Shown here: positions 14,336-31,385 of the stretch, in pieces
Layout: every line of letters starts with the position of its first letter
Position numbering within the stretch: the stretch's first letter is position 1
From: Myxococcota bacterium
GTDB lineage: Bacteria > Myxococcota_A > UBA9160 > UBA6930
Reading direction: 5' to 3'
NCBI GenBank assembly: GCA_965223415.1
Contig: OZ245002.1
Span: forward strand, 2,048,001 to 2,112,000
Length of the DNA: 64,000 nt
Translations under genes and position numbers: made by a program
Notes under the pieces: generated by a model
Database searches by the model: none
Seen by the model: the letters and a program-made list of their open reading frames with translations, nothing else
Told to the model about the DNA's origin: nothing

Positions 14336-15373
14336 TTACCCGAGCGGCCCCTTCGACGGGCCGGTGCGCCGCTCCGCGGGCCATGGCTGCAGGTCCAGGG
14401 GGCTGCGCACTCCGAAGCCGCCGCGGTTCAGCACGTGGGTGTAGACCATCGTCGTGCTGACACTGCGGTGGCCCAGGAGCTCCTGGACCGTGCGGATATC
14501 GTGGCCGCTCTCGAGGAGGTGAGTCGCGAAGCTGTGGCGGAGGGTGTGGCAGCTGACACGCTTGGCGAGCCCCGCGCGCTGCGCCGCATTCTTCACGGCG
14601 CGCTGTACCGGCGCTTCGCTGAGATGGTGCCGTCGGTCGCCGCCGCCACGGGGATCTCGGGAGCGGCGAGCCGCAGGAAAGACCCAGAACCACGTCCAGC
14701 TCCGCGCGGCCTTCGGGAACTTTCGCGCCAATGCGTCGGGCAGGAACACGCCGGGGCGCCCGTCCGCGACGTCGCGTTCGCGGAGGACGCGCGCTGCTTC
14801 GAGCTGGGCACGCAACGGCTCCACCAGCGCATCGGGCAGCATCGTCCTGCGATCGCGGCGGCCCTTGCCGTCCCTCACCAGGACCTCGCGGCGAGCGAAG
14901 TCCAGATCCTTCACGCGGAGACGCAGTGCCTCGAGCAGCCTGAGGCCCGAGCCGTAGAGCAACCCAGCGACGAGGGAGGAAGTGCCCGTGAGCTCCGCCA
15001 GCAGCGCCTGCGTCTCGCTGACGCTGAGGACGACCGGGAGGCGGCGCGGCTTGCGGGCGCGAACCGGAGCGAGGCTGCCGAGATCACGCCCCAGGACCTC
15101 GCGGTAGAGGAACAGCAGGGCGCCAAGCGCCTGGTTCTGCGTGGACGGCGCCACGTCTTGCTCGACGGCGAGCCACGTGAGGAACGCCGACACCTCGGCG
15201 GCACCCATGTCCGCGGGGTGACGCGTCCCCTGATGGAGGATGAAGCGCCGGATCCACCCGACGTACGCCTCTTCCGTCCGGAGGCTGTAGCCGCGAACCC
15301 GGATCGCGTCCCGAACCTGATCGAGCAACCGCGGCGGCTGCCCTTCTCCCCGTTCCGGGGAGCGTTTCGGCAT
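14336..15373 (-). CDS. intI: Integron integrase
   Basis: [41 protein letters not shown], plus the integron-specific insertion [13 protein letters not shown]...WVFPA. Confidence 0.97.
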
Positions 15374-15639
15374 GGTGTGGAACGACCCTGTCGCCCGGCC
15401 CGACGGGAGGGCCGCGGCGCGGGTGGGGTGGTCAATCGAGGCTACCAGCTTCGCGGGGCGGGGCCAGCGGGGGAGTCCCGAGAGCGGGCTCCGCCACGAG
15501 ACGCCGCCGCCTGTCGCACGAATTCGTTTCGAGAGACCCAGCTCGCCCGAATTGACTTCGAGCGCTCAGTATTCCCGAGGGGGCCGCAGCGAGACCCCGA
15601 GCGCGTCCAGTTCGGTGTAGACTCACTAGGGAGAATTGG

Positions 15640-15667
15640 TTCGGTGAGACCTACTATCTAGTTGGGC
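15640..15667 (+). other. Putative attI site
   Basis: GTTGGGC core at 15661-15667 divergent from intI; GTTGGGCGGCAGG is complementary to CCTGCCGCCCAAC at the end of cassette 1; left limit uncertain. Confidence 0.75.
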
Positions 15668-15680
15668 GGCAGGGAGTTCG

Positions 15681-16406
15681 ATGAAGCGAGACTTCATCAT
15701 TTCCGAGATCAAGCGCACAGCCTCCGACAACGACGGGGTCCCTCTCGGCCAGCGCGCCTTCGCCACCACAACGGGGATCCGCAGGCACGACTGGTATGGG
15801 CGTTTCTGGCCGAACTGGAGCGCCGCGCTCTCAGACGCCGGTTTCGAGCCCAACGTCTGGCAGGACAAGATTCCCGAAGACCTCCTGCTCGAGAAACTCG
15901 TCGAACTCATCTCTGAACTCGACAAATTCCCCACCGACGCGGAGCTTCGGCAAAAACGACGCGAGAATCCGAGCTTTCCAAGCCACAGCACCATGCATCG
16001 GCTCGGTCCCAGAGCCGAAAGGGCTCGGCGAATCATCGACTACTGCTCGACCGACGAGGACCTCTCCACGGTTGTAGCTATCTGCACCTCCATCGCTGAG
16101 CAAGCAGTCCCGCCGGCCAATGTGCCCGCCGACCCCAGCGAAGCTGAAGAGTTCGGAACCGTCTACCTCATCAAATCCGGACGTCATTACAAAGTCGGAA
16201 GAACCAATGCATTTGGGCGTCGCGAGCGCGAAATCGAGCTCCAGCTTCCCGATAAGGCGCAGACGGTTCATACCATCACCACGGACGATCCTGTCGGAAT
16301 CGAAGCCTACTGGCACCGCCGATTCGCCGATCGTCGCAAGAACGGAGAGTGGTTCGAGCTGTCGCCCGAAGACATTCGAGCCTTCAAGAGGCGAACCTTC
16401 ATGTAG
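15681..16406 (+). CDS. Cassette 1: GIY-YIG (T5orf172-like) nuclease with N-terminal helical repeats
   Basis: VYLIKSG..YKVGRT...E..WHRRF...NGEWF; lower GC than host genes. Confidence 0.85.
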   Translation: MKRDFIISEIKRTASDNDGVPLGQRAFATTTGIRRHDWYGRFWPNWSAALSDAGFEPNVWQDKIPEDLLLEKLVELISELDKFPTDAELRQKRRENPSFPSHSTMHRLGPRAERARRIIDYCSTDEDLSTVVAICTSIAEQAVPPANVPADPSEAEEFGTVYLIKSGRHYKVGRTNAFGRREREIELQLPDKAQTVHTITTDDPVGIEAYWHRRFADRRKNGEWFELSPEDIRAFKRRTFM

Positions 16407-16414
16407 CGCCTGCC

Positions 16415-16550
16415 GCCCAACAAGGCGCTGCAGCTGACGAGCCACAGCTCGTTCCAATCGACCCGTGGTAGTGTTTGGCATCGAATTTGGAAGCTTCGAG
16501 CGGGCTGCAGAGGCGCTGTGGCTCGCAGCTGAGCGCCAGGTCCGTTAGCC
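16415..16550 (+). other. attC site 1 (R' core hit by IS110, then IS1380)
   Basis: R'' GCCCAAC, L'' GCAGCTGAC, L' GCAGCTGAG, R' GTTAG|; removing both ISs restores GTTAGGC. Confidence 0.92.
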
Positions 16551-18073
16551 CTGATCCGGCATTGCGAGGTGTAGGGAAAGCCCGGAATTGAAAGTGGCTC
16601 CGTCGGTGTGCTTGATGGAAGTGCCAACCACCATCATGCCTCCGAGGAGCCACATTCGTGAAGCTAAGCAGACACCGGATTCGAGCCCGCGTCAAGGGCG
16701 AATTGTCGATCGCCTTCACGGATGAGGCGCTGACGAGCTACGGCGGGCTGGAGCTGTTCCGGCGCTTCTTCGACCGCTTTTGGGCAGAGCGCCTGAAAGC
16801 GGCCTTTGCGGATCGGGCGTTCGACTCGGACTACGGATCCTTCCGCTGCATGCTGGTGGTGGTGGGGATGCTGCTGCTGGGAGGGAGCCGTCTCTCGCAT
16901 GTCCGGGTGCTCGATCGGGATCCGTTGTTTCGGCGGTTCGTCCGATTGCAGCGGCTTCCGGACGAGCGGACCCTGGCGAGGAACCTGAAGGAGCTGACGT
17001 CGGGCTACCGCGATCGTCTGAACGAACTGCTGCGGGACATGGCCTATGGAACCCACACAGGGCTCGGCTTGGAGCGGGCCACGATCGAGCTGGACGGCAC
17101 CGTGCTTCGGACGGGCGAGTACGTGGACGGCGCCGAGCGCGGCTTCAACCCACATCACCCGAAGGACCCGTCCTACTACCCGCTGACGGCGCACCTGGCG
17201 CAGACGAGCCAGCTGCTCGGCGTATGGAACCGGCCGGGCAATGTGAACGATGCGGTGGGCGCTGCGGAGAAGCTGGCCTTTCTCCTGGGCGACGCGAAGC
17301 GGCGCCTCGATCGGGTCCCGATCGAGGTGCGGCTCGATGGCGCCTTCTTCCAGAAGGCCGTTCTCGAGGTTCTCACGGCCTCTCGCGTGGAGTACGCCCT
17401 CAAGGTCCCCATGTGGCGCTGGCTCGGCGTGCGTGAGAAGATCGCCGCCCGGAAGCGTTGGCACCGCGTCAACGCGAGCGTCGACGCCTTCTCCGTCGTC
17501 CACCGGATCCCACAGTGGAAGCGCTGCGAGCGGATCGTGGTGTTCCGCAAGAAGGTCTCCGGGCGAAGCGCGAAGAACTTCCAGCTCGACCTCTTCACCC
17601 CGGACGATGGCCACTACGAGTACTCGATGGTCGCGACGAACAAGCGGACCAGCGAGGCCGCCGTCTGGGCCTTCATGGCCGGACGCGGCGGCCACGAGAA
17701 GACGCTGGCCGAGCTCAAACAGCACCTGGCGTTCGCCACCATCCCGACCCAGGACTGGGACGCCAACAGCAACTGGCAGCTGCTCAGTGCCCTGACCCAC
17801 AACCTGGTGCGGGACTTCCAAGCCACGCTTGGCCTGCCAGAGCGACCCAACGGCCGAAAGCGGACCGCCCGGCTCCGCTTCCCCTCGCTCCGCACGCTCC
17901 GCTTCGAGCTGATCCAGCTCCCTGGCCGCATCGCTCGGCCTGCCGGACGCGCTTCGCTCCGAATCGCCGCGTCCTCGCGCAGCCGCTCCACCATCCGGGC
18001 CGCCGAGACCGCGCTCGCCGCGTGAGCCCGCCAGACCTACGCTCGGATCCGTGATCTCAATGCCGGATCAGGG
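16549..18073 (+). mobile_element. IS1380-family insertion sequence
   Basis: 16-bp perfect TIR CCCTGATCCGGCATTG; 4-bp TSD TTAG at 16545-16548 and 18074-18077. Confidence 0.92.
16658..18025 (+). CDS. IS1380-family DDE transposase
   Basis: LTSYGGL, ELDGT, RPGN, RLDGAF, RGGHE..AELK. Confidence 0.9.
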   Translation: MKLSRHRIRARVKGELSIAFTDEALTSYGGLELFRRFFDRFWAERLKAAFADRAFDSDYGSFRCMLVVVGMLLLGGSRLSHVRVLDRDPLFRRFVRLQRLPDERTLARNLKELTSGYRDRLNELLRDMAYGTHTGLGLERATIELDGTVLRTGEYVDGAERGFNPHHPKDPSYYPLTAHLAQTSQLLGVWNRPGNVNDAVGAAEKLAFLLGDAKRRLDRVPIEVRLDGAFFQKAVLEVLTASRVEYALKVPMWRWLGVREKIAARKRWHRVNASVDAFSVVHRIPQWKRCERIVVFRKKVSGRSAKNFQLDLFTPDDGHYEYSMVATNKRTSEAAVWAFMAGRGGHEKTLAELKQHLAFATIPTQDWDANSNWQLLSALTHNLVRDFQATLGLPERPNGRKRTARLRFPSLRTLRFELIQLPGRIARPAGRASLRIAASSRSRSTIRAAETALAA

Positions 18074-18092
18074 TTAGATACTCCCTTCGTCG

Positions 18093-19088
18093 TCAACCCT
18101 TCGTGGCGAAGAATTTCTCGCCAAGGAAGTCCTGGTCGTGGCGGAGCATGCCGTAGATGGCGTGGAGCAGCTTCCGCATGACGGCGACGAGTGCTTGCAT
18201 CTTGGTTTTGCCCTTGGAGAGCAGCTTCTCGTAGAAGGCCTTCACGTTCGGTTCCCAGCGTGCAGCGACCATCGCAGGAAGAAAGAGTGCGCGGCGAAGG
18301 TGGGCGTTGCCGGTCTTGCTGATGCGAGCTGGCTTGTGCACAGAGGTGCCCGATTGAAACTGTCGGGGGTCGAGGCCCGCATGCGCGACCCATTGCCGGG
18401 TCGTCATGTCCTTGGGCAAGGTGCCTAGCTCGGCGAGCAACTGGATGCCGGCTGCGTCGGCGATACCCTTGATCGATGTGATGTGGCCGAAGTCTCTGGC
18501 GAGCTCGGGGCTCTGCTCGATCACCTTCAACGCTTGCTTGCGCAGCCGATCGATTCGCCCCTCCAGGAGCTCGATCAGTTCGCGGATGTCTTGCTTCACG
18601 AACTCACTGAGCTCCTCGCTCTGGTCGTTGGCATGGAGCCGGTTCTTCTCCTGCGTCACGGTCTTGCTCAGAGCCTCCACGCGGCGGGAGAGGGCCCGTA
18701 CCTCCAGAATTCGGGGGTCCGGCGGAGTCCAGGCGGAAAACTCCATGCGCATTCCGAACTCGAGAATCGTTTCCGCATCGAGCGCATCCGTCTTGGAGCG
18801 TTGAAGCGATGCCTTGGCGAACGCGGCAATGGCCCGCGGGTTCGCCACCATCACCTGGGACGCCTTCGCACGGTGAAGCGCGAACGCGAGGTCGAGGCCG
18901 TACACCCCGGTCGATTCCAGGACGACGCGCGCCGTCGCATTCCCCTTCGTGGCCCACCGAATCAGCCTCTGGTGGCCCTTGGGATCGTTCGCAAAGACCA
19001 GCCCGCCCTCGCGAGTTCCGTTCCGGTCGATGGCGACGACGAGCTCCTTCGCCCCGACGTCCACGCCCACGTAATGACACTTCTTCAA
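18093..19088 (-). CDS. IS110 DEDD recombinase/transposase (331 aa)
   Basis: TTG start after GGAGG; GVDV, LESTG, KTDALDA (DEDD); QSGTS serine; GNAHLR; MRKL. Confidence 0.95.
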   Translation of the reverse strand: MKKCHYVGVDVGAKELVVAIDRNGTREGGLVFANDPKGHQRLIRWATKGNATARVVLESTGVYGLDLAFALHRAKASQVMVANPRAIAAFAKASLQRSKTDALDAETILEFGMRMEFSAWTPPDPRILEVRALSRRVEALSKTVTQEKNRLHANDQSEELSEFVKQDIRELIELLEGRIDRLRKQALKVIEQSPELARDFGHITSIKGIADAAGIQLLAELGTLPKDMTTRQWVAHAGLDPRQFQSGTSVHKPARISKTGNAHLRRALFLPAMVAARWEPNVKAFYEKLLSKGKTKMQALVAVMRKLLHAIYGMLRHDQDFLGEKFFATKG

Positions 19089-19139
19089 GGTCTCTCCTCC
19101 CCGTGATAAGCTGGGACCCGGGTCTCCCGACCCTGCACA

Positions 19140-19305
19140 TTCACCTACGGACCTTGTAGACGCAGGCTCTCGGGCCTCGGATACTCCACGGCATGGGTGA
19201 CGAGGGCGGGAGGCCCATCTAACGGACAAGCTCTCTGGCTTCAGGCAGCGACGGCCTTTCCCGGGAACCCATCTCGGAGTCTCACTCAGGCCCGAAGAGC
19301 CTGCT
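19140..19305 (-). ncRNA. Predicted bridge RNA of IS110 element A
   Basis: 5' hairpin, then loop with guides UCGCUGCCU (19243-19251) and GUCCGUUAG (19219-19227) matching the target, then loop with GGAGUAUC (19180-19187) and UACAAG (19153-19158) matching the donor; RNA ends approximate. Confidence 0.88.
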
Positions 19306-19324
19306 CAGAGGTACAAGGCGGCTC

Positions 19325-19711
19325 ATGCGGAGTTCGTTGCTTGCACTTGCGGTTCTGCTGACGGCTTGTAGCGATCCTTGGGAGTGCAAACTCGACCTCC
19401 GAGAACAGCTATCGGAGATCTCCACAACGGAGGTGCGTCTCCGCGACGTCACCGATTTCGATTGGACCACGGTGAGCGTCTTCGGCCCTTACACTCCCGG
19501 CGAGGAGATTAGGAAGCTCGGCGTCACCTATGAACCATCTCCCCTGGGGTTCGATCACGTACCTGAGTCTGCTGCCGAGCTCGTCTTCCTAAGCGAGGAT
19601 CAGCCGGTCTGTCGGCATACATGGTTTCACCATGACTCACGATACAGCTTCCGTGCCTGGGAAGAGTTCGATCCAACAGATCCCGTCTTGGTTCCCTATC
19701 GAACTCCCTAA
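19325..19711 (+). CDS. Cassette 2: hypothetical lipoprotein
   Basis: Lipobox LLTAC; FDW..V..FGPY motif; ATG just after the restored GTTAGGC. Confidence 0.8.
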   Translation: MRSSLLALAVLLTACSDPWECKLDLREQLSEISTTEVRLRDVTDFDWTTVSVFGPYTPGEEIRKLGVTYEPSPLGFDHVPESAAELVFLSEDQPVCRHTWFHHDSRYSFRAWEEFDPTDPVLVPYRTP

Positions 19712-20358
19712 GCATCTGAACGATCCGGCTGATGGTTGACAGAAGTCCAGGTACATCCTTTACACGCCTGTGATCGTTCCGGTTCGCTGATCGTACCTTC
19801 CGAGGAGGGTGCGGTAGTAGATGATGTTCCAGAGCCCGTCGCCGATCTCTTCGAGTCCGATGGTCTCGCCGGCCAGGGCATGGGAGAGAAACGGCAGCCG
19901 GGGCTGCATGCGGAAGGTGCCGGCGTTGTTGACGCGTCGCACCTCGAGGTGGGCCGGATACTCGGGCTCGGGGAGACTCTCTGGGTAGCTGCGCTTGGCC
20001 GGGCTCCAGAGCTCGTCCGGGACCTGATCGCCGATGCCTTCGTGGGGCCGCTCGGCGTTGTAGCGGTCGCGAAAGCGGTCGAAGCGCCGCTGCTGGGATC
20101 GTCGGGTGGCTGCCGGAGGCCGAGCCGTCTCCTTCTTCAGCTCGCGGTGCATCCGTTCGTGAGCTCCGTTCTCCTGCGGGCTCGCGGGTCGGATCCGTTG
20201 GTGGACGATGCCGAGCTTCATCCACCAGACGTTCAGCTCGCAGAGGCCGTGGATGCCGGTTGTCGCAGGACGTGATATTCGAGGGCTAAGAGGACACGTA
20301 GATTTGCGCACCTCCTGTTGAGCCGCTGCGCGGCACGTTCCCCGTGAGGGAGGGGGGC

Positions 20359-21630
20359 GTGGGGCAGCGGCGACTGAGGCAGGAGGAAGTGATGACGATC
20401 GAAGTGCTGCACGAGCGGGGGTGCTCGAACCGGGAGATCGCCCGCCAGCTGGGGATCCGGGAGAGCGCGGTGCGCTACCGGCTGAAGCGGCTGGCGGAGG
20501 GGGCGCGAGACGGCCGGAGCGGGAAGCCCTTCCTGGCCGAGGCGGTCCACGAGGTGATCGCGGAGTGGCTGGAGGCGAGCTCGGGAGGCCGTGGCGTGAA
20601 CCTGCAGGAGCTTCACGAGTTCCTGGTGGAGGAGCACGGGTACACGGGGAGCTCCAAGAGCGTGCAGCGGTACGTGCGGGCCCGGTTCCCGAGACCGAAG
20701 GTGCGGAGCCGGCGTCGGGTGGAGACACCGCCCGGGGCGCAGGGTCAGGTGGACTGGGGCGAGTTTCCGGGCGTGCGGATCGGGGGCCAGGAGGTGGACC
20801 TGCATGCCTTCCACCTGGTGCTCTCGCACTCGCGGCGAGAAGCGGTGGTGTGGTCGGAGCGGGCGGACACGCTGGCGTGGCTGGACGTGCACAACCGGGC
20901 CTTCGAGCGGCTGGGCGGGGTGCCGGCGGTGCTGCGGGTCGACAACGTGAAGACAGCGGTGGCGAAGGGGGCGGGGCCATGGGGGACGGTGAACCCGGCT
21001 TACGCGAGCTATGCCGGGGCCCTTCGCTTCCACGTGGACGCCACCCGTCCCCGCCAGCCGCAGGAGAAGGGGAAGGTGGAGCGTCGGATCCTGGGGCACC
21101 GGCGGGGCTTCGATCCGCGTCGGCGGGAGCACGAGAGCCTGGAGTCGCTGCAAGCGTGGACGGACGGCCAGGTGGCGCGCTCGAGCCACCGGCGGCAGTG
21201 CCCGGCGACGGGCACGACGGTCTTCCAGGCGTGGGAGGCGGAGAAGCCCCATCTCGGGGCCCTGCCCGAGCGGCTTCCCGAGCCCTTCGACCTGGCCGTG
21301 ATGCGACGTGTCGGGCGCGACGCCACGGTGCGCTTCGAGGGGCGTACCTACAGCGTCCCCTTCCGCTTCGTCGAGCAGAGCGTCGAGGTGCGCGGCTGCG
21401 CCCGGCAGGTGCAGGTCTGGGCCGAGGGCTCGGTGGTGGCCGCGCACCCGCGCCACACGCGAAGCCGCCTGCTGCTGGACCCGAGCCACTACGAGGGGCC
21501 GAGCACGGAGGGGGTGGAGGCGCCCGTACCGCTCGGGCGCATGGGTCGACGCCTCCAGGAGCTGTGGGCGATGGAGCCGGAGCAGCGGCCGATCGACCTC
21601 TATGCCGATCTGGCGGAGGTGGCGCGATGA
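20359..21630 (+). CDS. istA: IS21 transposase
   Basis: HTH, ETPPG.QGQVDWG, VDNVK, KGKVER; start estimated. Confidence 0.93.
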   Translation: MGQRRLRQEEVMTIEVLHERGCSNREIARQLGIRESAVRYRLKRLAEGARDGRSGKPFLAEAVHEVIAEWLEASSGGRGVNLQELHEFLVEEHGYTGSSKSVQRYVRARFPRPKVRSRRRVETPPGAQGQVDWGEFPGVRIGGQEVDLHAFHLVLSHSRREAVVWSERADTLAWLDVHNRAFERLGGVPAVLRVDNVKTAVAKGAGPWGTVNPAYASYAGALRFHVDATRPRQPQEKGKVERRILGHRRGFDPRRREHESLESLQAWTDGQVARSSHRRQCPATGTTVFQAWEAEKPHLGALPERLPEPFDLAVMRRVGRDATVRFEGRTYSVPFRFVEQSVEVRGCARQVQVWAEGSVVAAHPRHTRSRLLLDPSHYEGPSTEGVEAPVPLGRMGRRLQELWAMEPEQRPIDLYADLAEVAR

Positions 21631-22427
21631 CGGCGGGAAACCCGGTGCCCAAGAAGGGCGGCAAGGTGGATCTCGACCCGACCCGCGAGCGGCTCGTGCG
21701 CCTCGGCCTCCATCACGCGGCCGAGCACATCGGCGAGGAGCTGGCCCGAGCGACCAAGGACGACCTCGTGCCCCACCGCTTCCTCGACCTGCTGCTCGAG
21801 GCCGAGCTGCAGCACCGCGAGGAGCGGAGGATGAAGACCTCGCTCCGTCTCTCGGGCCTTCCCACGGGGCAGACCCTCGGCAACTTCGACTTCGCCTTCC
21901 AGCCGAGTGTGGAGCGGAGCCGGATCGAGACGCTGGGCACCTGCGCGTGGATCCGGGCCAAGGAGAGTCTGCTGATCCAGGGTCCGCCGGGAGTGGGCAA
22001 GACCCACCTGGCGGTGGCCCTGGGGGTGCGGGCCGTGGAGAACGGCTTCTCCGTGGCCTTCCATCGCCTCGAGGACCTGCTGGCGGCCCTCAAGCGCGAC
22101 GCCGAGATCAGCCCGCAACGGCTGCGGCGGCGCAAGCACATGAACGTGGCGCTCCTCGTCATCGACGAGGTCGGCTTCGAGCCCATGACGCGCCAGGAGG
22201 CGAGCCTCTTCTTCCGGCTCGTCTCCTACCGCTATGGGAGGGGCTCGATCCTGATCACCACGAACAAGGGCATCGCCGACTGGCCCGAGGTGCTGGCGGG
22301 CGACGAGGTGCTGGCCACCGCCATCCTCGATCGCCTCCTCCACCACAGCCAGGTGCTCAACATCTCGGGGCGGAGCTACCGGCTCCGCGAGCTCGAGCAG
22401 GCCGCGGGGCAAAGCGCCCAGCGTTGA
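21627..22427 (+). CDS. istB: IS21 helper ATPase
   Basis: GPPGVGKTHLA, IDEVG, AILDRLLHH, GRSYR. Confidence 0.95.
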   Translation: MTAGNPVPKKGGKVDLDPTRERLVRLGLHHAAEHIGEELARATKDDLVPHRFLDLLLEAELQHREERRMKTSLRLSGLPTGQTLGNFDFAFQPSVERSRIETLGTCAWIRAKESLLIQGPPGVGKTHLAVALGVRAVENGFSVAFHRLEDLLAALKRDAEISPQRLRRRKHMNVALLVIDEVGFEPMTRQEASLFFRLVSYRYGRGSILITTNKGIADWPEVLAGDEVLATAILDRLLHHSQVLNISGRSYRLRELEQAAGQSAQR

Positions 22428-23311
22428 GGCCCCAGAGGGCGGCCTGACGGCCGTGCTCTCCTTCGGAGAGCGGAAGAGAAGAAGGAAGAACCGAACATCA
22501 ACCCAGGGGGGTGCGCAAAACTAGCCGTCCTCTTAGCGCGCAAGAGATGACGTCCCTCGACACCGGTCGAGGCGAAGGGCGCACCGTTGTCGCTGCGGAT
22601 CGCCTCGGGAAGCCCGACCTCGCGGAACAGCCGTCGGAAGACGGGCTTCGCATGCTCCGTCCTCACGGAGGGCAGCCCTCGGCACACGAGGAGCTTCCGG
22701 CTGAAGTGGTCGGTCACCGTGAGCGGGTAGCAGTAGACGCCTGTCGAGGGACGTCATCTCTTGTGCGAAACTGGCCCTTGAAGTCGACGGGCCAGACCTC
22801 GTTCGGCCGCTCCGTCTGGAGCGGGGCGGCACCCGGATGGTCCCACTTCCGCCGCCGGCGGTTCTTGCGCAGCTTCCCGTGGCGATCGAGGATCGCGTTG
22901 ATCGTGCTCTGGGCCGGCAGCGCTCTTCGCGGGTGCCGCCGGGCCAGCACCAGGCGAAGCTTCTTCGCCCCCCAGCCGTACTGGGCCCGAAGCGCCAGGA
23001 CCTCCCGCTCCACGGCCTCGGGCGTCCGATGCGGGCAGCTCCTGGGCCTTCGCGAGCGCTCCTCGAGGCCCTCGCCCGCCTCGGCCCGCTCGAGCCACTT
23101 GTAGCCCGTGGGCCGGCTGACCCCGTAGCGCTCGCAGAGCTCCTTCATCCCCCACTGGCCGCTCGCATGATCGGCCACGAAGGCCTTCCGCTGTTCCGTC
23201 CGATTCGTTTGCATCCAAGGCATCCCTGGGTGTAAACGATGTACCCGGACTTCTGTAAACCATGTCCCCGGACCGTACCGTCCGCCGCCTAACCAGCGGC
23301 TGCAGCTGACC

Positions 23312-23557
23312 CGTTTAGGGAGTGTCAACTCCAATGATCGCGAAGCACGTGTGGGTCTTGGTGGTGTCCTCCAACGGAATCGGCTTGCGTCCCTGCGGGT
23401 TCGGGTTCAGTCCAAACGCGTTGTCGGCCTCGTGGGCTCAATGAGGGGTTCGGGGCGACGGTGGTGAATCGGGGCCAAGGGCTCATGGGCCGCAGTCAGC
23501 TGCCCGCCTACCGTCTTCGTTGGAACACAAGCGAGAAGGGGTCCTGGGGGAGCGGGG
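23312..23557 (-). ncRNA. Candidate guide (bridge/seek) RNA region of element B copy 1
   Basis: Non-coding end downstream of the transposase, with GCAGCUGAC (23495-23503) identical to the attC sequence abutting the insertion point. Confidence 0.6.
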
Positions 23558-24607
23558 CTACGCCATGCCAAGGCACCTCCGGAGATCGAAGGCCTCGCCG
23601 CGGGTGAGCGTGACCCAGACGCTGACGAGGAGTCTGCGAGCCAAGGCCATGCGGACCTTGTTCTTGTGGACGCGGGTCCGCATCGTCTTCGCCCAGGCAC
23701 GAACCAACGGGTCGTCCTTCATCAGGCGAACCGCCCATTGGCTGACGATCCAGCGGAGCTCGGCCTGGCCTTGGCGGGTCATGCGGCCGTGGTGGGCGTG
23801 GTCGGCTGACTGGTTCACCTTGGGGGTGAAGCCGGCGAAGGCCGAGACCGCACGGGGGCCTCGGAATCGGTGCGGGTCGCCGATCTCGGCGAGCAGCGTG
23901 GCAGCCGATTGCGTCCCGATGCTCGGGAGCTCCTGCTCGAGGGCCTGGACGTCGGGATCCTCTCGCCCGATCCGTCGGATCTCCCGATCGAGAGCCAGCA
24001 CCTGGCCCTGCAGGCTATCGAGCACCTGGAGCAGGGCCTTGAAGGCGGTCTGCATCTCCAGGGTCGGCAGGGTGACGGTGCGGAGCTTCTCCCGGCTCGG
24101 CTTGGTATAGAGCGCGCTCGTGGGAGCGGGAATCCGGTAGGCGTTCAGGAAGCCCCGGAGCTGGTTCACGGCCTGTTGGCGCATCTGGACGAGGCGGTGG
24201 CGGACCCGAAGGAGCTTCCTCCTCCCGTACTCCTCGTCGCTCGGGTAGTAGGTCGTTGCCACCCGATCCAGATCACCGAGCCAGAGCCGGCGTGCAATCT
24301 CGGCTGCATCTCGCCGGTCCGTCTTCTTGCCGAGCTTCTTCAGGTCGAGCTTGCGCGGATCACAGACCAGAACGTCGAGCTGCGCCTCTCGGCAGGCGTT
24401 GACGAACCACCGGTTGAGGCCCAACGCCTCGACGGCTACGCGGCAATGGGGTCCGAAGAACTTCAGCCGCTCCACGACCCCGAGGCCCTGTTCAAGGCTC
24501 TCGGAGCGGATCCTCTCCTCGGCGATCTTCTCACCCCGCGCATCCAGCACGCAGATCTGGATCACGGTGCGATGCAAGTCGATCCCAGCGAAGTACTCTG
24601 TCGTCAT
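23558..24607 (-). CDS. IS110/IS1111 transposase (349 aa), copy 1
   Basis: GIDLH, VEA, KTDRRDA (DEDD); NQSA serine; ARRL. Confidence 0.93.
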   Translation of the reverse strand: MTTEYFAGIDLHRTVIQICVLDARGEKIAEERIRSESLEQGLGVVERLKFFGPHCRVAVEALGLNRWFVNACREAQLDVLVCDPRKLDLKKLGKKTDRRDAAEIARRLWLGDLDRVATTYYPSDEEYGRRKLLRVRHRLVQMRQQAVNQLRGFLNAYRIPAPTSALYTKPSREKLRTVTLPTLEMQTAFKALLQVLDSLQGQVLALDREIRRIGREDPDVQALEQELPSIGTQSAATLLAEIGDPHRFRGPRAVSAFAGFTPKVNQSADHAHHGRMTRQGQAELRWIVSQWAVRLMKDDPLVRAWAKTMRTRVHKNKVRMALARRLLVSVWVTLTRGEAFDLRRCLGMA

Positions 24608-24765
24608 GGTCAGTCTCCTTGGGGAGTGTTTGTTGGAACACAGCCAAGGTGGCTGTTCCTCGGTGGACACCCAAAACCGGCCATAGAAGGACGTCTGAAA
24701 AGCGGCCATAGGGGCTGACGCCCAGGACGTTGACGACGGCGAGGGACCTGCGATCCCCCGCCGCC

Positions 24766-26355
24766 ATGGCGAACCTTCTGGGCAACGAGAAACGCGAGCA
24801 GATTCTGGCACTTGGCCGCCTCGGCTGGTCGCTTCGGCGGATCGAGGAGGCGACGGGCGTGCGCCGGGAGACGGCGAGCCGTTACCTCCGGGCCGCGGGG
24901 ATCGCGGTGCGATCTCCTGGTCGCTGGGGGCACGGGGCCCCAAACCCGGCCATAGAGGCGTCCACCGACTCGAAGGCCCCGGCAAAAGCGGCCAAAGAGG
25001 CGTCCACCGATCCGGCCTGGCCGCCGATGCCGGGCCGGAGCCCCCAGGCCAGCGCCTGCGAGCCCTACCGCGAGTGGATCGAGGCGGGCGTGCGCCAGGG
25101 CCGGACGGCGATGGCGATCTGGCAGGACCTAGTCGATGACCACGGCTTCGCCTTCAGCTATGCGAGTGTGAAGCGCTTCGTGGCGAAGCAGCGAGCCGCG
25201 GCGCCGCGCGAGGCGCACCCGGTGATCGAGACGGCACCGGGAGAAGAGGGCCAGGTCGACTACGGCGACGGGCCGATGGTGCGGCATCCCGGGTCGGGGA
25301 AGTACCGGCGCACGAGGCTGTTCGTCTTCACCCTGGGCTACAGCCGCAAGTGCGTTCGGCTGCTCGTGTGGAAGTCGAGCAGCCAGGTCTGGTCGGAGCT
25401 GCACGAGAAGGCCTTCCGCCGGCTGGGCGGTGCACCGCGCACCGTCGTCCTCGACAACCTCAAGGAGGGCGTTCTCAAGCCCGACGTCTACGACCCCGCG
25501 CTCAACCCCCTCTACCGCGATGTGCTCGCCCACTACGGCGTGACGGCGCTTCCGTGCCGGGTGCGCCACCCCGATCGCAAGGGGAAGGTCGAGTCCGGGG
25601 TGCGCCACGCGCAGCAGAAGGTCCGCGGGATGCGCTTCGAGTCGCTCGAGCAGGCCCAGGCCTACCTCGACCGCTGGGAGCGCCGATGGGCCGACACCCG
25701 CATCCACGGCACGACCAAGCGCCAGGTGGCGGCGATGTACGAAGAGGAGAAGCCGCACCTGCTCGGGCTTCCCATCGAGCCCTTCCGCTACTACCAGCAC
25801 GGCGAGCGCACGGTGCACCTCGACGGGGCCATCGAGGTGGAGGGGGCCTACTACCACGCGCCGCCGGGCTGGCTGGGGCGGCGGGTGGCCGTCCAATGGG
25901 ACGGGCTGCGGGTGCGGATGCTCGATCTGCAGACGGGGGAGCTGCTGCGCGAGCACGTCCGCCAGAGGCGGGGGCGCCGCAGGATGCGGGAGGAGGACCG
26001 CCCGAAGCGGACGCCGGCCACGACCCTCCAGCTGCTCGCGCGGGCCCGGCGCGCCGGCGTCCACGTGGGCGAGGTGTGTGAGGCGATCCATCGCCTGGAC
26101 GGCGAGCCCGGGGTGCGTCGCATCCTGGGCGTGCTCTCCCTGTGCAAGCGCCACGGCATCCCTCGCGTCGACGATGCCTGCGCCACCGCCCTGGCCCTCG
26201 AGCTGCCCACCTACGCGTTCGTCAAGCGCTACCTGGAGCGTCAGCCCGAGCTGCCGCTCTCGCTCAAGCAGGTGGACCCGCTCATCCGCCAGCTCACCCA
26301 CTACCGCGATCTCATCGATCGCCGCACCGAGGAGACCTCTCGTGAATCTGACTGA
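24766..26355 (+). CDS. istA: IS21 transposase
   Basis: ETAPGEEGQVDYG, LDNLKEGV, KGKVES. Confidence 0.93.
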   Translation: MANLLGNEKREQILALGRLGWSLRRIEEATGVRRETASRYLRAAGIAVRSPGRWGHGAPNPAIEASTDSKAPAKAAKEASTDPAWPPMPGRSPQASACEPYREWIEAGVRQGRTAMAIWQDLVDDHGFAFSYASVKRFVAKQRAAAPREAHPVIETAPGEEGQVDYGDGPMVRHPGSGKYRRTRLFVFTLGYSRKCVRLLVWKSSSQVWSELHEKAFRRLGGAPRTVVLDNLKEGVLKPDVYDPALNPLYRDVLAHYGVTALPCRVRHPDRKGKVESGVRHAQQKVRGMRFESLEQAQAYLDRWERRWADTRIHGTTKRQVAAMYEEEKPHLLGLPIEPFRYYQHGERTVHLDGAIEVEGAYYHAPPGWLGRRVAVQWDGLRVRMLDLQTGELLREHVRQRRGRRRMREEDRPKRTPATTLQLLARARRAGVHVGEVCEAIHRLDGEPGVRRILGVLSLCKRHGIPRVDDACATALALELPTYAFVKRYLERQPELPLSLKQVDPLIRQLTHYRDLIDRRTEETSRESD

Positions 26356-27103
26356 ACTCGATCCCGCACTGCGCAAGCTCCGGCTCTCGGGCATGGCCGA
26401 GCATCTGGAGATGCGGCTCCTCGAAGCCCAGAAGGGCGAGTGGGCGGCCATCGACCTGCTCTCGGCGCTCGTCCAGGACGAGCTCGAGCGCCGGCAGGAC
26501 CGACTGCTGGCCCGGCGCATCAAGCAGGCCCGCTTCCGCGACGCCAACCGGACCCTCAACGGCTTCGACTTCCGCTTCAATACGAAGATCGATCGCGCCC
26601 TGGTCTTCGAGCTCGCCACGGGCCGCTTCCTCGAGCAAGCCGAGGACGCTGTCTTCCTCGGCCCGCCGGGCACGGGCAAGAGCCATCTCGCCCAGGCGAT
26701 CGGCCTCGCCGTCATCCACCAGGGCCATCGCGTCGCCTACCGCGAGGTCCACGTCCTCCTCGAGGAACTCGCTGATGCGACCCTCGACGGCACCCGCAAG
26801 GAGTACCTGGCCGAGATCGCGAGAGTGCCGCTGCTCATCCTCGACGACCTCGGCATGCGCAAGCTCCCCACCACGGCCGCCGAGGACCTCCTCGAGCTGA
26901 TCATGCGCCGCTACGAGCGCACCAGCACCCTCGTCACCTCGAACCGACCCGTCGACGACTGGGGCCGGCTCCTCGGCGACACGGCAGCCGTCACCGCCAT
27001 GCTCGACCGCCTCCTCCACCACGGCCACCTGCTCAAGTGCGGACCCCGCAGCTGGCGCACCAAGAAGACCACCGCCTTGCCGAAGGAGGCCCCGGCGCGG
27101 TAG
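26342..27103 (+). CDS. istB: IS21 helper ATPase
   Basis: GPPGTGKSHLA, LDDLG, AMLDRLLHH, SWR. Confidence 0.95.
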   Translation: MNLTELDPALRKLRLSGMAEHLEMRLLEAQKGEWAAIDLLSALVQDELERRQDRLLARRIKQARFRDANRTLNGFDFRFNTKIDRALVFELATGRFLEQAEDAVFLGPPGTGKSHLAQAIGLAVIHQGHRVAYREVHVLLEELADATLDGTRKEYLAEIARVPLLILDDLGMRKLPTTAAEDLLELIMRRYERTSTLVTSNRPVDDWGRLLGDTAAVTAMLDRLLHHGHLLKCGPRSWRTKKTTALPKEAPAR

Positions 27104-27318
27104 AACCCCTCTGTCCTGGGCGCGGCCCTTTGGCCGCCTTTGAGACGTCCACCTTTGGCCGGTTTTCAGACGTCCACCGAGGGCTGTTCTCCAAGGAGCT
27201 GACCTCCCTATACCCTCCGGGCACCCGCGCGTTCCAACCGGGGCGTGGTACCCTTAGGGTTCCACTCAGGCGCCTCAGCGAGCCTCGGGGCCGGCCCGGC
27301 AGCTGAGCCGCCTGTCCG

Positions 27319-27540
27319 TTAGGCGGCGTTGGGCTTCCAGCGCATGGATGGCCGCTTCTTCGTGCGAGCGCACTCGCCGAGATAGAGATTGATCAGTGTT
27401 TGGTACGGGATGTCCGTCTCTTCCGACAGCTCACGGAAGTACGCGAGCGTCTCCTCGTCCAGACGAATTGTGATCTGCTTCTTCAGTCGCCTGGCGTACG
27501 GGTTCCTCTTTCCCTTCGAGAAGTCGTAGTTCTTTCTCAT
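27319..27540 (-). CDS. brnA: Cassette 3: BrnA/CopG-like antitoxin
   Basis: MRKNYDFSKG.RNPY...KKQITIRLD...YF...PYQTLIN; stop TAA lies inside GTTAGGC. Confidence 0.88.
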   Translation of the reverse strand: MRKNYDFSKGKRNPYARRLKKQITIRLDEETLAYFRELSEETDIPYQTLINLYLGECARTKKRPSMRWKPNAA

Positions 27541-27827
27541 CGCTTCCACCGCCTCTCGTAGTCTCGTCTCTCGGCCCTGTTGGCGCGCCGCGCCGAGATG
27601 ACGCGAATCACGTGGTCTTCCTCTCGGTAGCAGTGGCAAACCACCAGGGCCCGGAGTGCAGCCGAAAGCCCAATCATCACGAAGCGGTCCTCGGCTTCAT
27701 CCGGGTCCTCGATCAAGATCGCAGCTTCGTCGTAGAAGACCGTCCGCGCTTCCTCGAACGAAACACCGTGTTTCTTCTGATTGGCCTTGTCCTTCTTCGG
27801 GTCCCAGTCGAAGTCGATATCGGCCAT
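27537..27827 (-). CDS. brnT: Cassette 3: BrnT family ribonuclease toxin
   Basis: FDWDPKK...N.KKHGVSFEEA..VF...IRVISARRA. Confidence 0.92.
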   Translation of the reverse strand: MADIDFDWDPKKDKANQKKHGVSFEEARTVFYDEAAILIEDPDEAEDRFVMIGLSAALRALVVCHCYREEDHVIRVISARRANRAERRDYERRWKR

Positions 27828-27892
27828 CCGACCCTAGTGTAGTTATACTGTAGTGGAACGCAACGCCGCCTAACCAGCGGCTGCAGCTGACC

Positions 27893-28138
27893 CGTTTAGG
27901 GAGTGTCAACTCCAATGATCGCGAAGCACGTGTGGGTCTTGGTGGTGTCCTCCAACGGAATCGGCTTGCGTCCCTGCGGGTTCGGGTTCAGTCCAAACGC
28001 GTTGTCGGCCTCGTGGGCTCAATGAGGGGTTCGGGGCGACGGTGGTGAATCGGGGCCAAGGGCTCATGGGCCGCAGTCAGCTGCCCGCCTACCGTCTTCG
28101 TTGGAACACAAGCGAGAAGGGGTCCTGGGGGAGCGGGG
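27893..28138 (-). ncRNA. Candidate guide RNA region of element B copy 2
   Basis: Same as copy 1; target-matching 9-mer at 28076-28084. Confidence 0.6.
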
Positions 28139-29188
28139 CTACGCCATGCCAAGGCACCTCCGGAGATCGAAGGCCTCGCCGCGGGTGAGCGTGACCCAGA
28201 CGCTGACGAGGAGTCTGCGAGCCAAGGCCATGCGGACCTTGTTCTTGTGGACGCGGGTCCGCATCGTCTTCGCCCAGGCACGAACCAACGGGTCGTCCTT
28301 CATCAGGCGAACCGCCCATTGGCTGACGATCCAGCGGAGCTCGGCCTGGCCTTGGCGGGTCATGCGGCCGTGGTGGGCGTGGTCGGCTGACTGGTTCACC
28401 TTGGGGGTGAAGCCGGCGAAGGCCGAGACCGCACGGGGGCCTCGGAATCGGTGCGGGTCGCCGATCTCGGCGAGCAGCGTGGCAGCCGATTGCGTCCCGA
28501 TGCTCGGGAGCTCCTGCTCGAGGGCCTGGACGTCGGGATCCTCTCGCCCGATCCGTCGGATCTCCCGATCGAGAGCCAGCACCTGGCCCTGCAGGCTATC
28601 GAGCACCTGGAGCAGGGCCTTGAAGGCGGTCTGCATCTCCAGGGTCGGCAGGGTGACGGTGCGGAGCTTCTCCCGGCTCGGCTTGGTATAGAGCGCGCTC
28701 GTGGGAGCGGGAATCCGGTAGGCGTTCAGGAAGCCCCGGAGCTGGTTCACGGCCTGTTGGCGCATCTGGACGAGGCGGTGGCGGACCCGAAGGAGCTTCC
28801 TCCTCCCGTACTCCTCGTCGCTCGGGTAGTAGGTCGTTGCCACCCGATCCAGATCACCGAGCCAGAGCCGGCGTGCAATCTCGGCTGCATCTCGCCGGTC
28901 CGTCTTCTTGCCGAGCTTCTTCAGGTCGAGCTTGCGCGGATCACAGACCAGAACGTCGAGCTGCGCCTCTCGGCAGGCGTTGACGAACCACCGGTTGAGG
29001 CCCAACGCCTCGACGGCTACGCGGCAATGGGGTCCGAAGAACTTCAGCCGCTCCACGACCCCGAGGCCCTGTTCAAGGCTCTCGGAGCGGATCCTCTCCT
29101 CGGCGATCTTCTCACCCCGCGCATCCAGCACGCAGATCTGGATCACGGTGCGATGCAAGTCGATCCCAGCGAAGTACTCTGTCGTCAT
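28139..29188 (-). CDS. IS110/IS1111 transposase (349 aa), copy 2
   Basis: Identical protein to 23558-24607. Confidence 0.94.
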   Translation of the reverse strand: MTTEYFAGIDLHRTVIQICVLDARGEKIAEERIRSESLEQGLGVVERLKFFGPHCRVAVEALGLNRWFVNACREAQLDVLVCDPRKLDLKKLGKKTDRRDAAEIARRLWLGDLDRVATTYYPSDEEYGRRKLLRVRHRLVQMRQQAVNQLRGFLNAYRIPAPTSALYTKPSREKLRTVTLPTLEMQTAFKALLQVLDSLQGQVLALDREIRRIGREDPDVQALEQELPSIGTQSAATLLAEIGDPHRFRGPRAVSAFAGFTPKVNQSADHAHHGRMTRQGQAELRWIVSQWAVRLMKDDPLVRAWAKTMRTRVHKNKVRMALARRLLVSVWVTLTRGEAFDLRRCLGMA

Positions 29189-29503
29189 GGTCAGTCTCCT
29201 TGGGGAGTGTTTGTTGGAACACAGCCAAGGTGGCTGTTCTCCAAGGAGCTGACCTCCCTATACCCTCCGGGGAACCGCCCCTTCCAATCGGGCCATGGTA
29301 CCCTGGGGTTCCCATGGCGCGCTCTCGCCATCCGACAGGTGTCGGTTCTTCTGGCTCTTCACGGCGTCTCCGTGGCCTGGGGTTGGCGGTCAGCGCTGTC
29401 GGCTGCGGCGGAAGCGCGAGCGGCTCTCGTAGAGCCATGCAGCACGCCCGTTGGGCAGCATGACCCTCCCTGGCACCAAGCCAAGCACTACTGGGAACCA
29501 GCT

Positions 29504-29968
29504 ATGGCAACGCTCCATCTGATGGTTGGCCTTCCGTGCTCTGGCAAGACGACGCTGGCACGCACCCTCGAACACAGGTACTCGGCGCTTCGCCTCACGC
29601 CGGATGAGTGGCAGGTGCGCCTCTTCGGGCAGGATGCGGCGGATCCGCGGCACGACGCCCGTCACAGCCTCATTGAGGCGCTGCAATGGGAGGTTGCCGA
29701 AAGGGCGTTGGTATTGGGCATCAGTGTCATCCTCGATTTCGGCTTCTGGGCGCATGAAGAACGAGAGGATTTCCGATCACGAGCCGAGCAGCTTGGGGCC
29801 AGTAGCGAAGTGCATTTCCTCGATGTACCGAGCGACGAGTTGCTTCGGCGGCTGGCCAACCGAAACGCACGACCGGAATTGGCGTTCCATATCCCCGAAG
29901 AGATGATGATGTCGTGGATAGAGTCCTTCCAGAGGCCGGACGAGGACGAACTGGAGCGTAGAGATTGA
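29504..29968 (+). CDS. AAA/P-loop kinase (probable cassette 4)
   Basis: MVGLPCSGKTT, TPDEW, VILDFGFW..EER. Confidence 0.88.
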   Translation: MATLHLMVGLPCSGKTTLARTLEHRYSALRLTPDEWQVRLFGQDAADPRHDARHSLIEALQWEVAERALVLGISVILDFGFWAHEEREDFRSRAEQLGASSEVHFLDVPSDELLRRLANRNARPELAFHIPEEMMMSWIESFQRPDEDELERRD

Positions 29969-29996
29969 CAACGGAACCCGGCCAGGAGAGCGCTCC

Positions 29997-30026
29997 GCCT
30001 AATCAGCGGGCCGCGGCAGATCGGGG
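29997..30026 (+). other. Decayed attC left arm
   Basis: GCCTAATCAGCGGGCCGCGGCAGATCGGGG aligns to GCCTAACCAGCGGCTGCAGCTGACCGGGG; AAC mutated to AAT. Confidence 0.65.
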
Positions 30027-30140
30027 CAGCGGATCACGCTGCGGCAGCCAAGCCTTCTGAATCGGGGATTCCGCCCTCCGAGGGACCCCTGGGTTACACT
30101 TCGATGCCTGAACGAACCCGGTCTGTCAGAGCAACGAAAG

Positions 30141-30653
30141 ATGTTCGAGACACTTCGGAACTTCGCAGAGATCGGGATTGCGATCGCCGGCTTCAGCGCG
30201 ATCGCTTCCGCCCTCAGATCGCGGGTCTCTGCCGCCTGGCCCGAGCGCGACCGCCTGGCCCTCGTATCGCTTCTCGAGACTTCGGCGTTGGTCGTGTTGT
30301 TCGCGATCGTTCCACAGGTGCTCCATCAGATCCTGGAGAACGAGCGCGGCCTCTGGGTCAGCTCCAACCTCGGTTACGCTGCGTTTCACTCCTTCCACTA
30401 CGTCATTCAGCTGCGACGCATCGGCTTCTCCGGCGGAGCGAGCGAGACCCTTCACCCGGTGAGCCGCCTGGCGGGTGGCACCATGTTTCTCGGCGGCATT
30501 CTGCTGGTAGCGACACAGGTAGCACTCGTTGCCTTCGGCGATCCGCGTCAGCTCCGATTCATCTACCTCGTCGCGTTGACCTGGCACTCCTGTGTGGCGG
30601 CCGTGATGTTCGGAAGCCTGATCCTTCGATCCTTGAGGGGCAATGATGCTTGA
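30141..30653 (+). CDS. Hypothetical membrane protein
   Basis: Several TM segments; AEIGIAIAGFS motif resembles 33517-34047. Confidence 0.75.
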   Translation: MFETLRNFAEIGIAIAGFSAIASALRSRVSAAWPERDRLALVSLLETSALVVLFAIVPQVLHQILENERGLWVSSNLGYAAFHSFHYVIQLRRIGFSGGASETLHPVSRLAGGTMFLGGILLVATQVALVAFGDPRQLRFIYLVALTWHSCVAAVMFGSLILRSLRGNDA

Positions 30654-30992
30654 CGAGGCGATGCAGGTCGTAGCCAATCTGAGGCGCCGCGCCCGACTAG
30701 CCCATCCTCTCGGCGTCGGGGAATCACGCGAAGCAACCATGGACAAGGTCAATCTCGCTCAGAAGACTCCCGCTCCGCGGAATCGCCCGACCGGCTGAAA
30801 CGCGTCGCGGGCGGCCGAGCGCTCCCGAGACGCCAGAGCCCGGGCTTGCGATCGCTGCATCACTGCAACGACGCGTTGCGAGCCCGCAACGCCAGTGGCG
30901 TCCCGATGGCTCTCGATCGATGCCAGCTGGCACGCGGTTTGCTGCATCGGGGAGGAGAGCTTCCAATCTGCACCCATCGTGGGAGGACCTCC

Positions 30993-31385
30993 ATGTCGGC
31001 GGAGCGCGTGTTTCTCTGGGTCGCCGGCCCACTGTTCCTCGCAATCGGAGCCGCCTATCTCGTCTCGCCGGTGGCCATGGCGGCGGTCACCGAGCTGGGC
31101 GTGGCCACCGCCACCGCCACGATCGACGTCCGGGGCTACTACGGAGGGCAGCTCGCCGGCATCGGCGCTCTCGTGCTGCTCGGCGCAGTCCGGCCTGCCT
31201 ACGCCCCTGCCGCCTTCCTCGTCGTCGCGTCTTCCCTCGGAGGCACCGGCCTCGGGCGGCTCGTCGGGCTCGCAGCAGCAGACGCCGCGCCGCCGCTCAT
31301 GGTCTCGGCAACGATTCTCGAGCTGGCCTCCGCAGTGACGGCTCTTCTCCTGGCTCGCCGCACCTTCGACCTGCCTGCCGCCTAG
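30993..31385 (+). CDS. DUF4345-like membrane protein
   Basis: DVRGYYGG...GRLVG; GGAGG RBS. Confidence 0.75.
   Translation: MSAERVFLWVAGPLFLAIGAAYLVSPVAMAAVTELGVATATATIDVRGYYGGQLAGIGALVLLGAVRPAYAPAAFLVVASSLGGTGLGRLVGLAAADAAPPLMVSATILELASAVTALLLARRTFDLPAA

Follow-up and report, generated by a model that had tools for sequence, protein, structure and literature searches.

A divergent IS1111-type lineage in integron attC sites with a predicted bridge/seek RNA whose guides covary with their targets

Insertion sequences (ISs) of the IS1111-attC group (ISKpn4, ISPst6, ISPa25, and ISPa21), which Tetu and Holmes in 2008 and Post and Hall in 2009 are said to have treated, insert into attC sites within the cassette arrays of integrons. 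SeekRNAs with matches to both strands co-purify with ISKpn4 and ISPst6, and seekRNA guidance to attC has been published (Siddiquee et al. 2024, PMC11187229). The bridge RNA of IS621 carries a target loop followed by a donor loop, and in each loop an inner hairpin is flanked by a left guide, which is long, and a right guide, which is short (Durrant et al. 2024, PMC11208160); that element has a junction promoter, a recombinase with DEDD residues plus a serine, and handshake-like dinucleotides that favour insertion (Hiraizumi et al. 2024, PMC11208158; PMC13626964).

Here we describe a 1376-bp IS1111-type element in an integron-like array within a 64,000-nt stretch of a Myxococcota bacterium genome (contig OZ245002.1, positions 2,048,001 to 2,112,000; hereafter the window, whose numbering we use). 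It resembles the IS1111-attC group in its 3' noncoding region, its subterminal inverted repeats (IRs) with extensions of 7 and 3 bp, its two target matches with the top-strand complement first, and its antisense placement relative to the cassettes within the R''-proximal half of attC (PMC11187229), while its lineage and guide letters differ. The predicted loop order, guide arrangement, and junction promoter, the DEDD-plus-serine residues, and the putative handshake-like dinucleotides are those of IS621, whereas the RNA lies in the 3' end rather than the 5' end, the subterminal IRs are long, and only the C-terminal half of the protein matches. We consider it probable (roughly 0.87) that this element homes into attC with its own bridge/seek RNA and that its lineage reached attC independently of ISPa21 and ISKpn4 by reprogramming of its guides. 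RNA-guided attC targeting itself has already been published; new here is a lineage that reaches attC independently and at a different base. A literature search that covered few subscription journals turned up neither this lineage nor any insertion at this position of attC.

Four copies, 100% identical over their aligned parts, are found in the genome, two in the window and two elsewhere, one of the latter split inside the recombinase gene. All four occupy the same target base just past the L'' box of attC, with GCGGCTGCAGCTGA-CC preceding and GGG following, and all are antisense to the cassette array with their right end toward R''. Copy 2 (27893–29268, minus strand) is intact, and its noncoding ends measure 246 nt downstream of the recombinase gene (27893–28138) versus 80 nt upstream. 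Copy 1 (23312–27218, minus strand) is split in its 80-nt 5' end by a nested IS21-family element (24658–27182, plus strand) with istA and istB (Pfam rve, Mu-transpos_C_2, and IstB_IS21) and a duplicated GCTGTT. The recombinase gene of copy 2 (28139–29188, minus strand) encodes 349 aa and matches Pfam PF01548 and PF02371, both above cut-off; that of copy 1 (23558–24607, minus strand) matches the same two families. An N-terminal DEDD domain (PF01548), a C-terminal PF02371 domain, and the conserved serine make this an IS110/IS1111 DEDD recombinase, with D10, E60, D97, D100, and S267 invariant in 38 aligned sequences. A sequence-only reading of this DNA had described both window copies at GCGGCTGCAGCTGA-CC, then CC-GGG, with subterminal IRs and a 246-nt 3' noncoding end, all of which is borne out by the letters; it had omitted the split of copy 1.

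The subterminal IRs of copy 2 (right, 27896–27913; left, 29245–29261) are imperfect and, at 17–18 bp, longer and less perfect than the 11–13 bp usual for the IS1111 family. The extensions outside them, 7 bp on the left and 3 bp on the right, have the same spacing in most relatives and correspond to the end layout of the IS1111 family in the Hall definition, as does the long noncoding region downstream of the transposase gene; 7+3 ends without a duplication are described for IS1111 elements (PMC11187229). The right IR contains a -35 box, TTGACA (27904–27909, minus strand), and a -10-like TATAGG lies at the left IR (29257–29262, minus strand). At the joined ends of a predicted circle these boxes would stand 17 bp apart, and a similar junction promoter can be recognized in 35 of the 46 clusters of relatives with both ends. 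No joint between the element's ends was present in the contigs of 4 sequencing runs, contigs being uninformative on circles. Two features of the 5' end were seen in addition. It may fold into a hairpin over the ribosome-binding region via the left IR (29190–29254), with GGTCAG-TCTCCTTGG against CCAAGGAG-CTGACC, and an 11-letter stretch of it, GTTGGAACACA, is repeated in the 5' stem of the RNA (28100–28111); together these suggest possible translational control.

The attC at copy 1 is divided by the element into a proximal half (23287–23311, plus strand; R'' 23287–23293, L'' 23299–23306, CC 23310–23311) and a distal part (27219–27324, plus strand; the GGGC assigned to guide 2 at 27219–27222, L' 27302–27308, R' 27318–27324). 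At copy 2 the proximal half is present (27868–27892, plus strand; R'' 27868–27874, L'' 27880–27887, CC 27891–27892) and there is no L'/R' arm within 200 nt, so that of the two attC sites named in the sequence-only reading, hit at the same base as it stated, one is a half attC. The distal arm is present at copies 1, 3, and 4, whose rejoined sites fold as attC-type hairpins, and R'' stands at the canonical 5-bp spacing for three of the four copies, being displaced in copy 3. In attC nomenclature we take the crossover to lie 18 bp after R'', just past L''. The L'–R' spacing is 8–9 bp in the attC sites of this genome and of relatives L011, L012, L014, L019, L028, and L088, compared with 6 bp in the plasmid attC site examined, and an attC scan limited to a spacing of 5–7 bp recovered none of this genome's sites.

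A protein search for relatives scored 8000 candidates and gave 623 matches at E 1e-20, of which the best 120 have 53–77% identity; an alignment of 38 of them was used to fetch 80 metagenome and 79 genome loci. An alignable RNA region is present in 99 of the 112 entries with at least 43% identity, a set that includes the element's own copies; the other 13, too short or truncated, were dropped. Ends were called from the subterminal repeats, the right ends of L026, L064, and L066 being set by hand. Hosts, where named, are Chloroflexota, Gemmatimonadota, Planctomycetota, and other environmental groups. Relatives are rare among the host's kin: 2 of 60 other genomes have one at E 1e-30, one of these a 73% fragment, and none of 400 other genomes of the phylum sample has one at E 1e-80.

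The 3' ends of these relatives have in common a scaffold of about 128 nt, in which variable stretches occur at fixed positions and which in copy 2 corresponds to 27982–28109 (minus strand) and is predicted to be the core of a bridge/seek RNA, target loop then donor loop, with covarying stems. Target guide 1, GCAGCUGAC (28076–28084, minus strand), is predicted to pair with the attC bottom strand. Target guide 2 (28049–28056, minus strand), which consists of GCCC (28053–28056) followed by a conserved CG and a putative handshake AU, would pair with the top strand. In the donor loop a probable left guide, ACCCCUCA (28023–28030, minus strand), is followed by a right guide (27996–28003, minus strand) composed of AACG (28000–28003), the conserved CG, and a putative handshake UU. 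The same four guides lie at 23495–23503, 23468–23475, 23442–23449, and 23415–23422 in copy 1. A scan of 15000–31000 against Rfam gave no matches up to an E value of 1.

The assignment of these guides depends on their covariation with the DNA that each relative adjoins. We used one representative per cluster of 90% RNA identity (58 clusters) and repeated the analysis with 38 clusters at 80%, with similar results. On average, guide 1 agreed with the flank of its own element at 6.15 of 8 noncore letters versus 2.93 after permutation (n = 52, best of two registers in both), guide 2 agreed with the opposite flank at 4.12 of 5 versus 1.52 (n = 48), and the right donor guide agreed with the right end of its element at 4.00 of 4 versus 2.48 (n = 53), with a full match in all 53 clusters. 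None of 10,000 permutations reached any of these three scores, values that overstate independence since the clusters are related. Among attC-borne relatives guide 1 follows variants of attC (L014/L019, L028/L032/L036, and L016), and in L016 the second unpaired base on the L'' side is altered in both guide and site. The RNA thus has what defines a seekRNA or bridge RNA, two target guides, one per strand, that change with the target, and by this comparison of relatives the 3' end of the element is predicted to encode a full bridge/seek RNA, which is presumably expressed. The 9-mer that the sequence-only reading proposed as a target guide, at 23495–23503 and 28076–28084, is therefore upheld in position and supported as a guide, and the second target guide that it had looked for by eye in vain exists as GCCC at 28053–28056.

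The structure of the RNA rests on the alignment, since the 3' end folded as a single sequence does not outperform shuffles (z 0.50). RNAalifold on 46 sequences recovered the target loop's outer stem, in which 7 of 7 pairs have changes on both sides. Two structures drawn by hand with inner hairpins have 87% and 91% of cells paired versus 28–43% when slid, with both-side changes at 13–15 of 20 pairs, and the covarying structure leaves guide 1 unpaired. A GGGC...GCCC stem that the sequence-only reading had drawn appears in the single-sequence fold and is absent from the consensus pairs. Its donor-like CGUUUGG sits directly 3' of AACG, which is the donor guide that covariation supports. The putative handshake letters of this element would form no Watson-Crick pairs before strand exchange and two after it, a change in the same direction as in IS621 (PMC13626964).

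The core bases differ from those of IS621. In the 52 clusters with a right flank, one base lies between the element and the guide 1 match in 20, none in 15, and two or three in 3, with 14 unassignable; in 6 of the 20 single-base clusters the intervening base differs from the element's own. A two-base core is therefore not conserved across the relatives compared, and the CC at both ends noted in the sequence-only reading holds for this element and does not extend to a conserved core, the second base being free in relatives. IS621 pairs and prefers both bases of its CT core. In relatives of the present element the second core base of the target is free or absent, and the right guides, unlike those of IS621, have at that position a C that is conserved (the guides read CG in 54 and 53 of 58 clusters). 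The ISKpn4 target (Table 1 of PMC13604230) and the ISPa21 site also differ at the second core base, which makes this an IS1111 trait. A free second core base is compatible with, and would fit, top-strand-first integration, a link that we draw by analogy with the top-strand-only integration reported for one IS110 element (10.1101/2025.10.25.684509). The distance from the right end to the guide 1 match ranges from 0 to 3 bases even among the close, mostly attC-borne L008, L013, L015, L016, and L017, which may reflect a flexible register, imprecise joining, or misassembly.

Several observations weigh against the reading of an independently reprogrammed, RNA-guided attC element. Besides the relatedness of the clusters, guide 2 is only 4 nt long, guide 1 has two or more mismatches in 27 of 52 clusters, and some fits are poor (guide 2 of L088, 1 of 5; guide 1 of L021, 4 of 9). 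The left donor guide is weak, with a best real column at z 6.5 and neighbours at 3.4–3.6; a column that scored 17 in the per-column scan was discarded as an artefact of a single observation. The handshake trend in relatives is also weak (1.87 after versus 1.39 before, of 4; n = 31). Guide 2 does not tell the true flank from a folded site's mirror arm (39 versus 38 of 50 letters, 10 sites). The trees are quick ones with long branches and contain ISPa21 as the sole IS1111-attC member, without ISKpn4, ISPst6, and ISPa25. Finally, of the 66 copies of the 9-mer in the genome, 11 are non-attC sites that match guide 2 at 3–4 of 4 letters and yet are empty.

These empty sites bear on an unlikely variant, in which the guides read the sequence and DNA structure helps, cruciform extrusion or easy melting making attC preferred over equal linear sites. 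All four insertions are in attC-type arms, the well-matching non-attC sites are vacant, three of them outside long frames of high G+C at third codon positions (high GC3) by the filter used, and R'' lies at the expected distance in 10 of the 20 close relatives (65–76% identity; not in 5, with too little flank in 5, and with both attC arms present in 6). The other 8 vacant sites, including all 4 with GGG, are in long high-GC3 coding frames, and selection against gene disruption can explain most of the vacancies and is enough for these. L009 carries an attC-type guide 1 at a site without R'' (matches 8 of 9 and 4 of 5), and the site of copy 2 now has no distal arm. Guide 2 itself separates occupied from empty attC-type arms: it matches 4, 3, 4, and 4 of 4 letters at the occupied sites and 2, 2, 2, and 1 of 4 at the four attC-type arms that contain the 9-mer and are empty. 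An attC of the same array that lacks this element lies at 16415–16550 (plus strand; guide 1 9 of 9 letters, guide 2 2 of 4). Sequence matching by the two guides of the element remains our preferred account.

Monophyly of ISPa21, ISPst6, and ISKpn4 as the IS1111-attC group has been stated (PMC3001079), and we asked where the present element falls relative to it. For ISPa21 we used the IS110 gene between smr and qacE-delta1 on plasmid pME-1a, following PMC7232449; the record itself lacks that name. The recombinase is 24% identical to that of ISPa21 and 32% identical over 340 aligned positions to that of ISHvo10 of Haloferax volcanii, the nearest named element found, an archaeal IS with long noncoding regions on both sides that is placed among more diverged ISs near the IS1111 cluster (PMC11187229); the best plasmid matches are at about 30–32%. 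In the trees, from which L061 and L080 were left out because of stops, the clade stands apart from ISPa21, IS884, and IS5075 and beside ISHvo10 (Shimodaira-Hasegawa-like approximate likelihood ratio test 91–92 in both trees, not starred). Approximately unbiased (AU) tests reject grouping with ISPa21 at p 1.7e-45 for the attC-borne rows and 1.4e-5 for the whole clade, to be read with long-branch caution. The transposase falls outside the tight IS1111 cluster of the Hall definition, so that by these comparisons the element is an IS1111-type outlier lineage by its ends and not a core member by its protein.

It would be quite improbable, in light of these results, that the element belongs to the known IS1111-attC group as a divergent member whose crossover was shifted by 12 bp. 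The site class, the orientation, the 7+3 ends, and the free base beside a conserved C are common to both. Set against this are the lower identity to ISPa21 than to ISHvo10, the AU tests, and deeper relatives with other targets. Insertion is antisense in attC as in that group, while its position is not the shared one of that group at the start of L'': crossing over takes place 18 bp after R'' and past L'', compared with 6 bp in ISPa21 and ISKpn4 (PMC13604230), that is, 12 bp further into attC. The attC-borne members are nested inside a clade in which the remaining members go to other targets, which indicates that attC targeting arose within this clade; in the more distant relatives no attC was seen by eye, these not having been run through the attC filter. 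On phylogenetic grounds, then, attC targeting arose independently of the ISPa21/ISKpn4 group, and the label IS1111-attC given in the sequence-only reading survives as an analogy, the element being outside that group by trees, AU tests, and crossover.

No more credible is action of the enzyme on a folded single-stranded attC hairpin, with the L' arm replacing the other strand. The folded bottom strand does offer partners for both guides, the near-equal fit of guide 2 to true flank and mirror arm meaning that this guide cannot discriminate duplex from hairpin, and top-strand-only integration has been reported as noted above. In the geometry of IS621 the strand paired with guide 2 gets cut (PMC11208158), which would place the cut in the L' arm of a folded bottom strand, and all four copies and all attC-borne relatives examined are inserted in the L'' arm. 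On a folded top strand guide 1 would lose its first position and the eighth would have no partner, with 6–7 of the 8 remaining positions matched. The same RNA scaffold, moreover, serves many non-attC targets among relatives. Guide 1 covers two positions on the L'' side that have no partner in the folded site, and reading of these two unpaired bases accounts for the restriction of hits to the L'' arm and to one orientation despite the palindromic CAGCTG. Recognition of duplex DNA fits best, judged from these matches, and a hairpin substrate is not needed; the suggestion in the sequence-only reading that the folded attC might be recognized gives way to the covarying second guide and to the many non-attC targets of the scaffold.

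That the 9-mer is a chance match or a captured target remnant, with targeting by protein alone, can be set aside: when the 3' end is shuffled, an exact 9-mer of the target turns up in 121 of 5000 cases, so that the 9-mer alone is weak evidence, and it is the position-fixed covariation of three guides over about 50 clusters with many different targets that makes the guide solid and that neither chance nor a single capture can produce.

With RNA-guided homing into duplex attC as the preferred reading, the following sequence of events can be proposed. The element would form a circle, the joined ends of which would build a promoter, as the sequence of the ends and its conservation in relatives suggest. 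A transcript through the recombinase gene into the 3' end would yield the RNA with its target and donor loops, whose structure is drawn from covariation. On what is probably double-stranded DNA, guide 1 would pair with the bottom strand of attC across the last part of L'' and the bases that follow it, and guide 2 with the top strand immediately beyond the crossover, pairings that covariation supports. The donor loop would hold the circle junction, through a right guide indicated by covariation and a more weakly indicated left guide. The DEDD/Ser recombinase would then join the ends at the observed position 18 bp after R'', by a chemistry modelled on that of IS621. The lineage itself may have arrived at attC by natural reprogramming of its guides.

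Other targets of the same scaffold were seen among the relatives. Ten loci at 53–56% identity (L027, L030, L033, L034, L038, L040, L043, L054, L083, and L090) have a common target starting CTAG-CCC, presumably resembling the terminal repeat of another insertion sequence family. Four loci of one Planctomycetota genome (L091, L092, L093, and L110) along with L042, L047, L081, and L108 adjoin short palindromic repeats like repetitive extragenic palindromic (REP) sequences, which would mean that this RNA scaffold has been retargeted in nature to a different class of repeat.

The gain from this locus is a well-supported new lineage and a test set, the mechanism not being new. The 3' bridge RNA of the clade is readable and comes with dozens of naturally occurring pairs of guide and target, including those with a free or missing second core base, and these bear on two questions about IS1111-type elements, the need for a shared core and the exchange of one strand or of both. 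The locus also shows that two RNA-guided elements unrelated to each other can enter one integron array at different positions of a single site. A more speculative view, which we hold to be unlikely as a whole, is that attC is a convergent target of RNA-guided insertion sequences, that this lineage reads two unpaired, symmetry-breaking bases and also needs the site to extrude or melt, and that target choice is made by guide and DNA structure together. If true, it would, with the IS621-type element at the R' core (two of the four occupied attC sites carry both), offer a test in nature of whether integron cassettes are locked in layers by RNA-guided elements.

That second element, the other IS110 of the window (18070–19317, minus strand), is of the IS621 type, with a 5' noncoding end and CT at both ends. 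It matches the IS1111-type recombinase at 26% in the C-terminal part only, in agreement with the sequence-only reading, which had called the two unrelated. There are five more copies in G000:C1, three of the six copies lie in attC R' cores, and two attC sites carry both this element, in the R' core, and the IS1111-type element. Its candidate guides at 19243–19250, 19219–19225, 19180–19187, and 19153–19159 spell, by eye, the attC R' core and the element's own ends. Adjoining it, in the R' core of the first attC, is an element with Pfam DDE_Tnp_1_4 at about 16549–18072, which we take to be IS1380-like; it was considered as attC-specific and rejected, 7 of the 8 copies found lying at CTAG elsewhere.

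The array is headed by a tyrosine recombinase gene (14336–15373, minus strand) named integron-integrase-like from its sequence and place, and a BrnT/BrnA-type toxin-antitoxin cassette (27319–27827, minus strand; Pfam PF04365 and PF14384) lies between the two targeted sites. Two further attC clusters, far from the window's integrase gene (G000:C1 2529271–2536023 and 2773683–2779255), each contain both IS110 elements. Between the second cassette and the attC of copy 1 (19736–23280) are stacked insertion sequences, including an IS21-family element and broken pieces of integrase-core transposases, and the integron array is thus heavily invaded.

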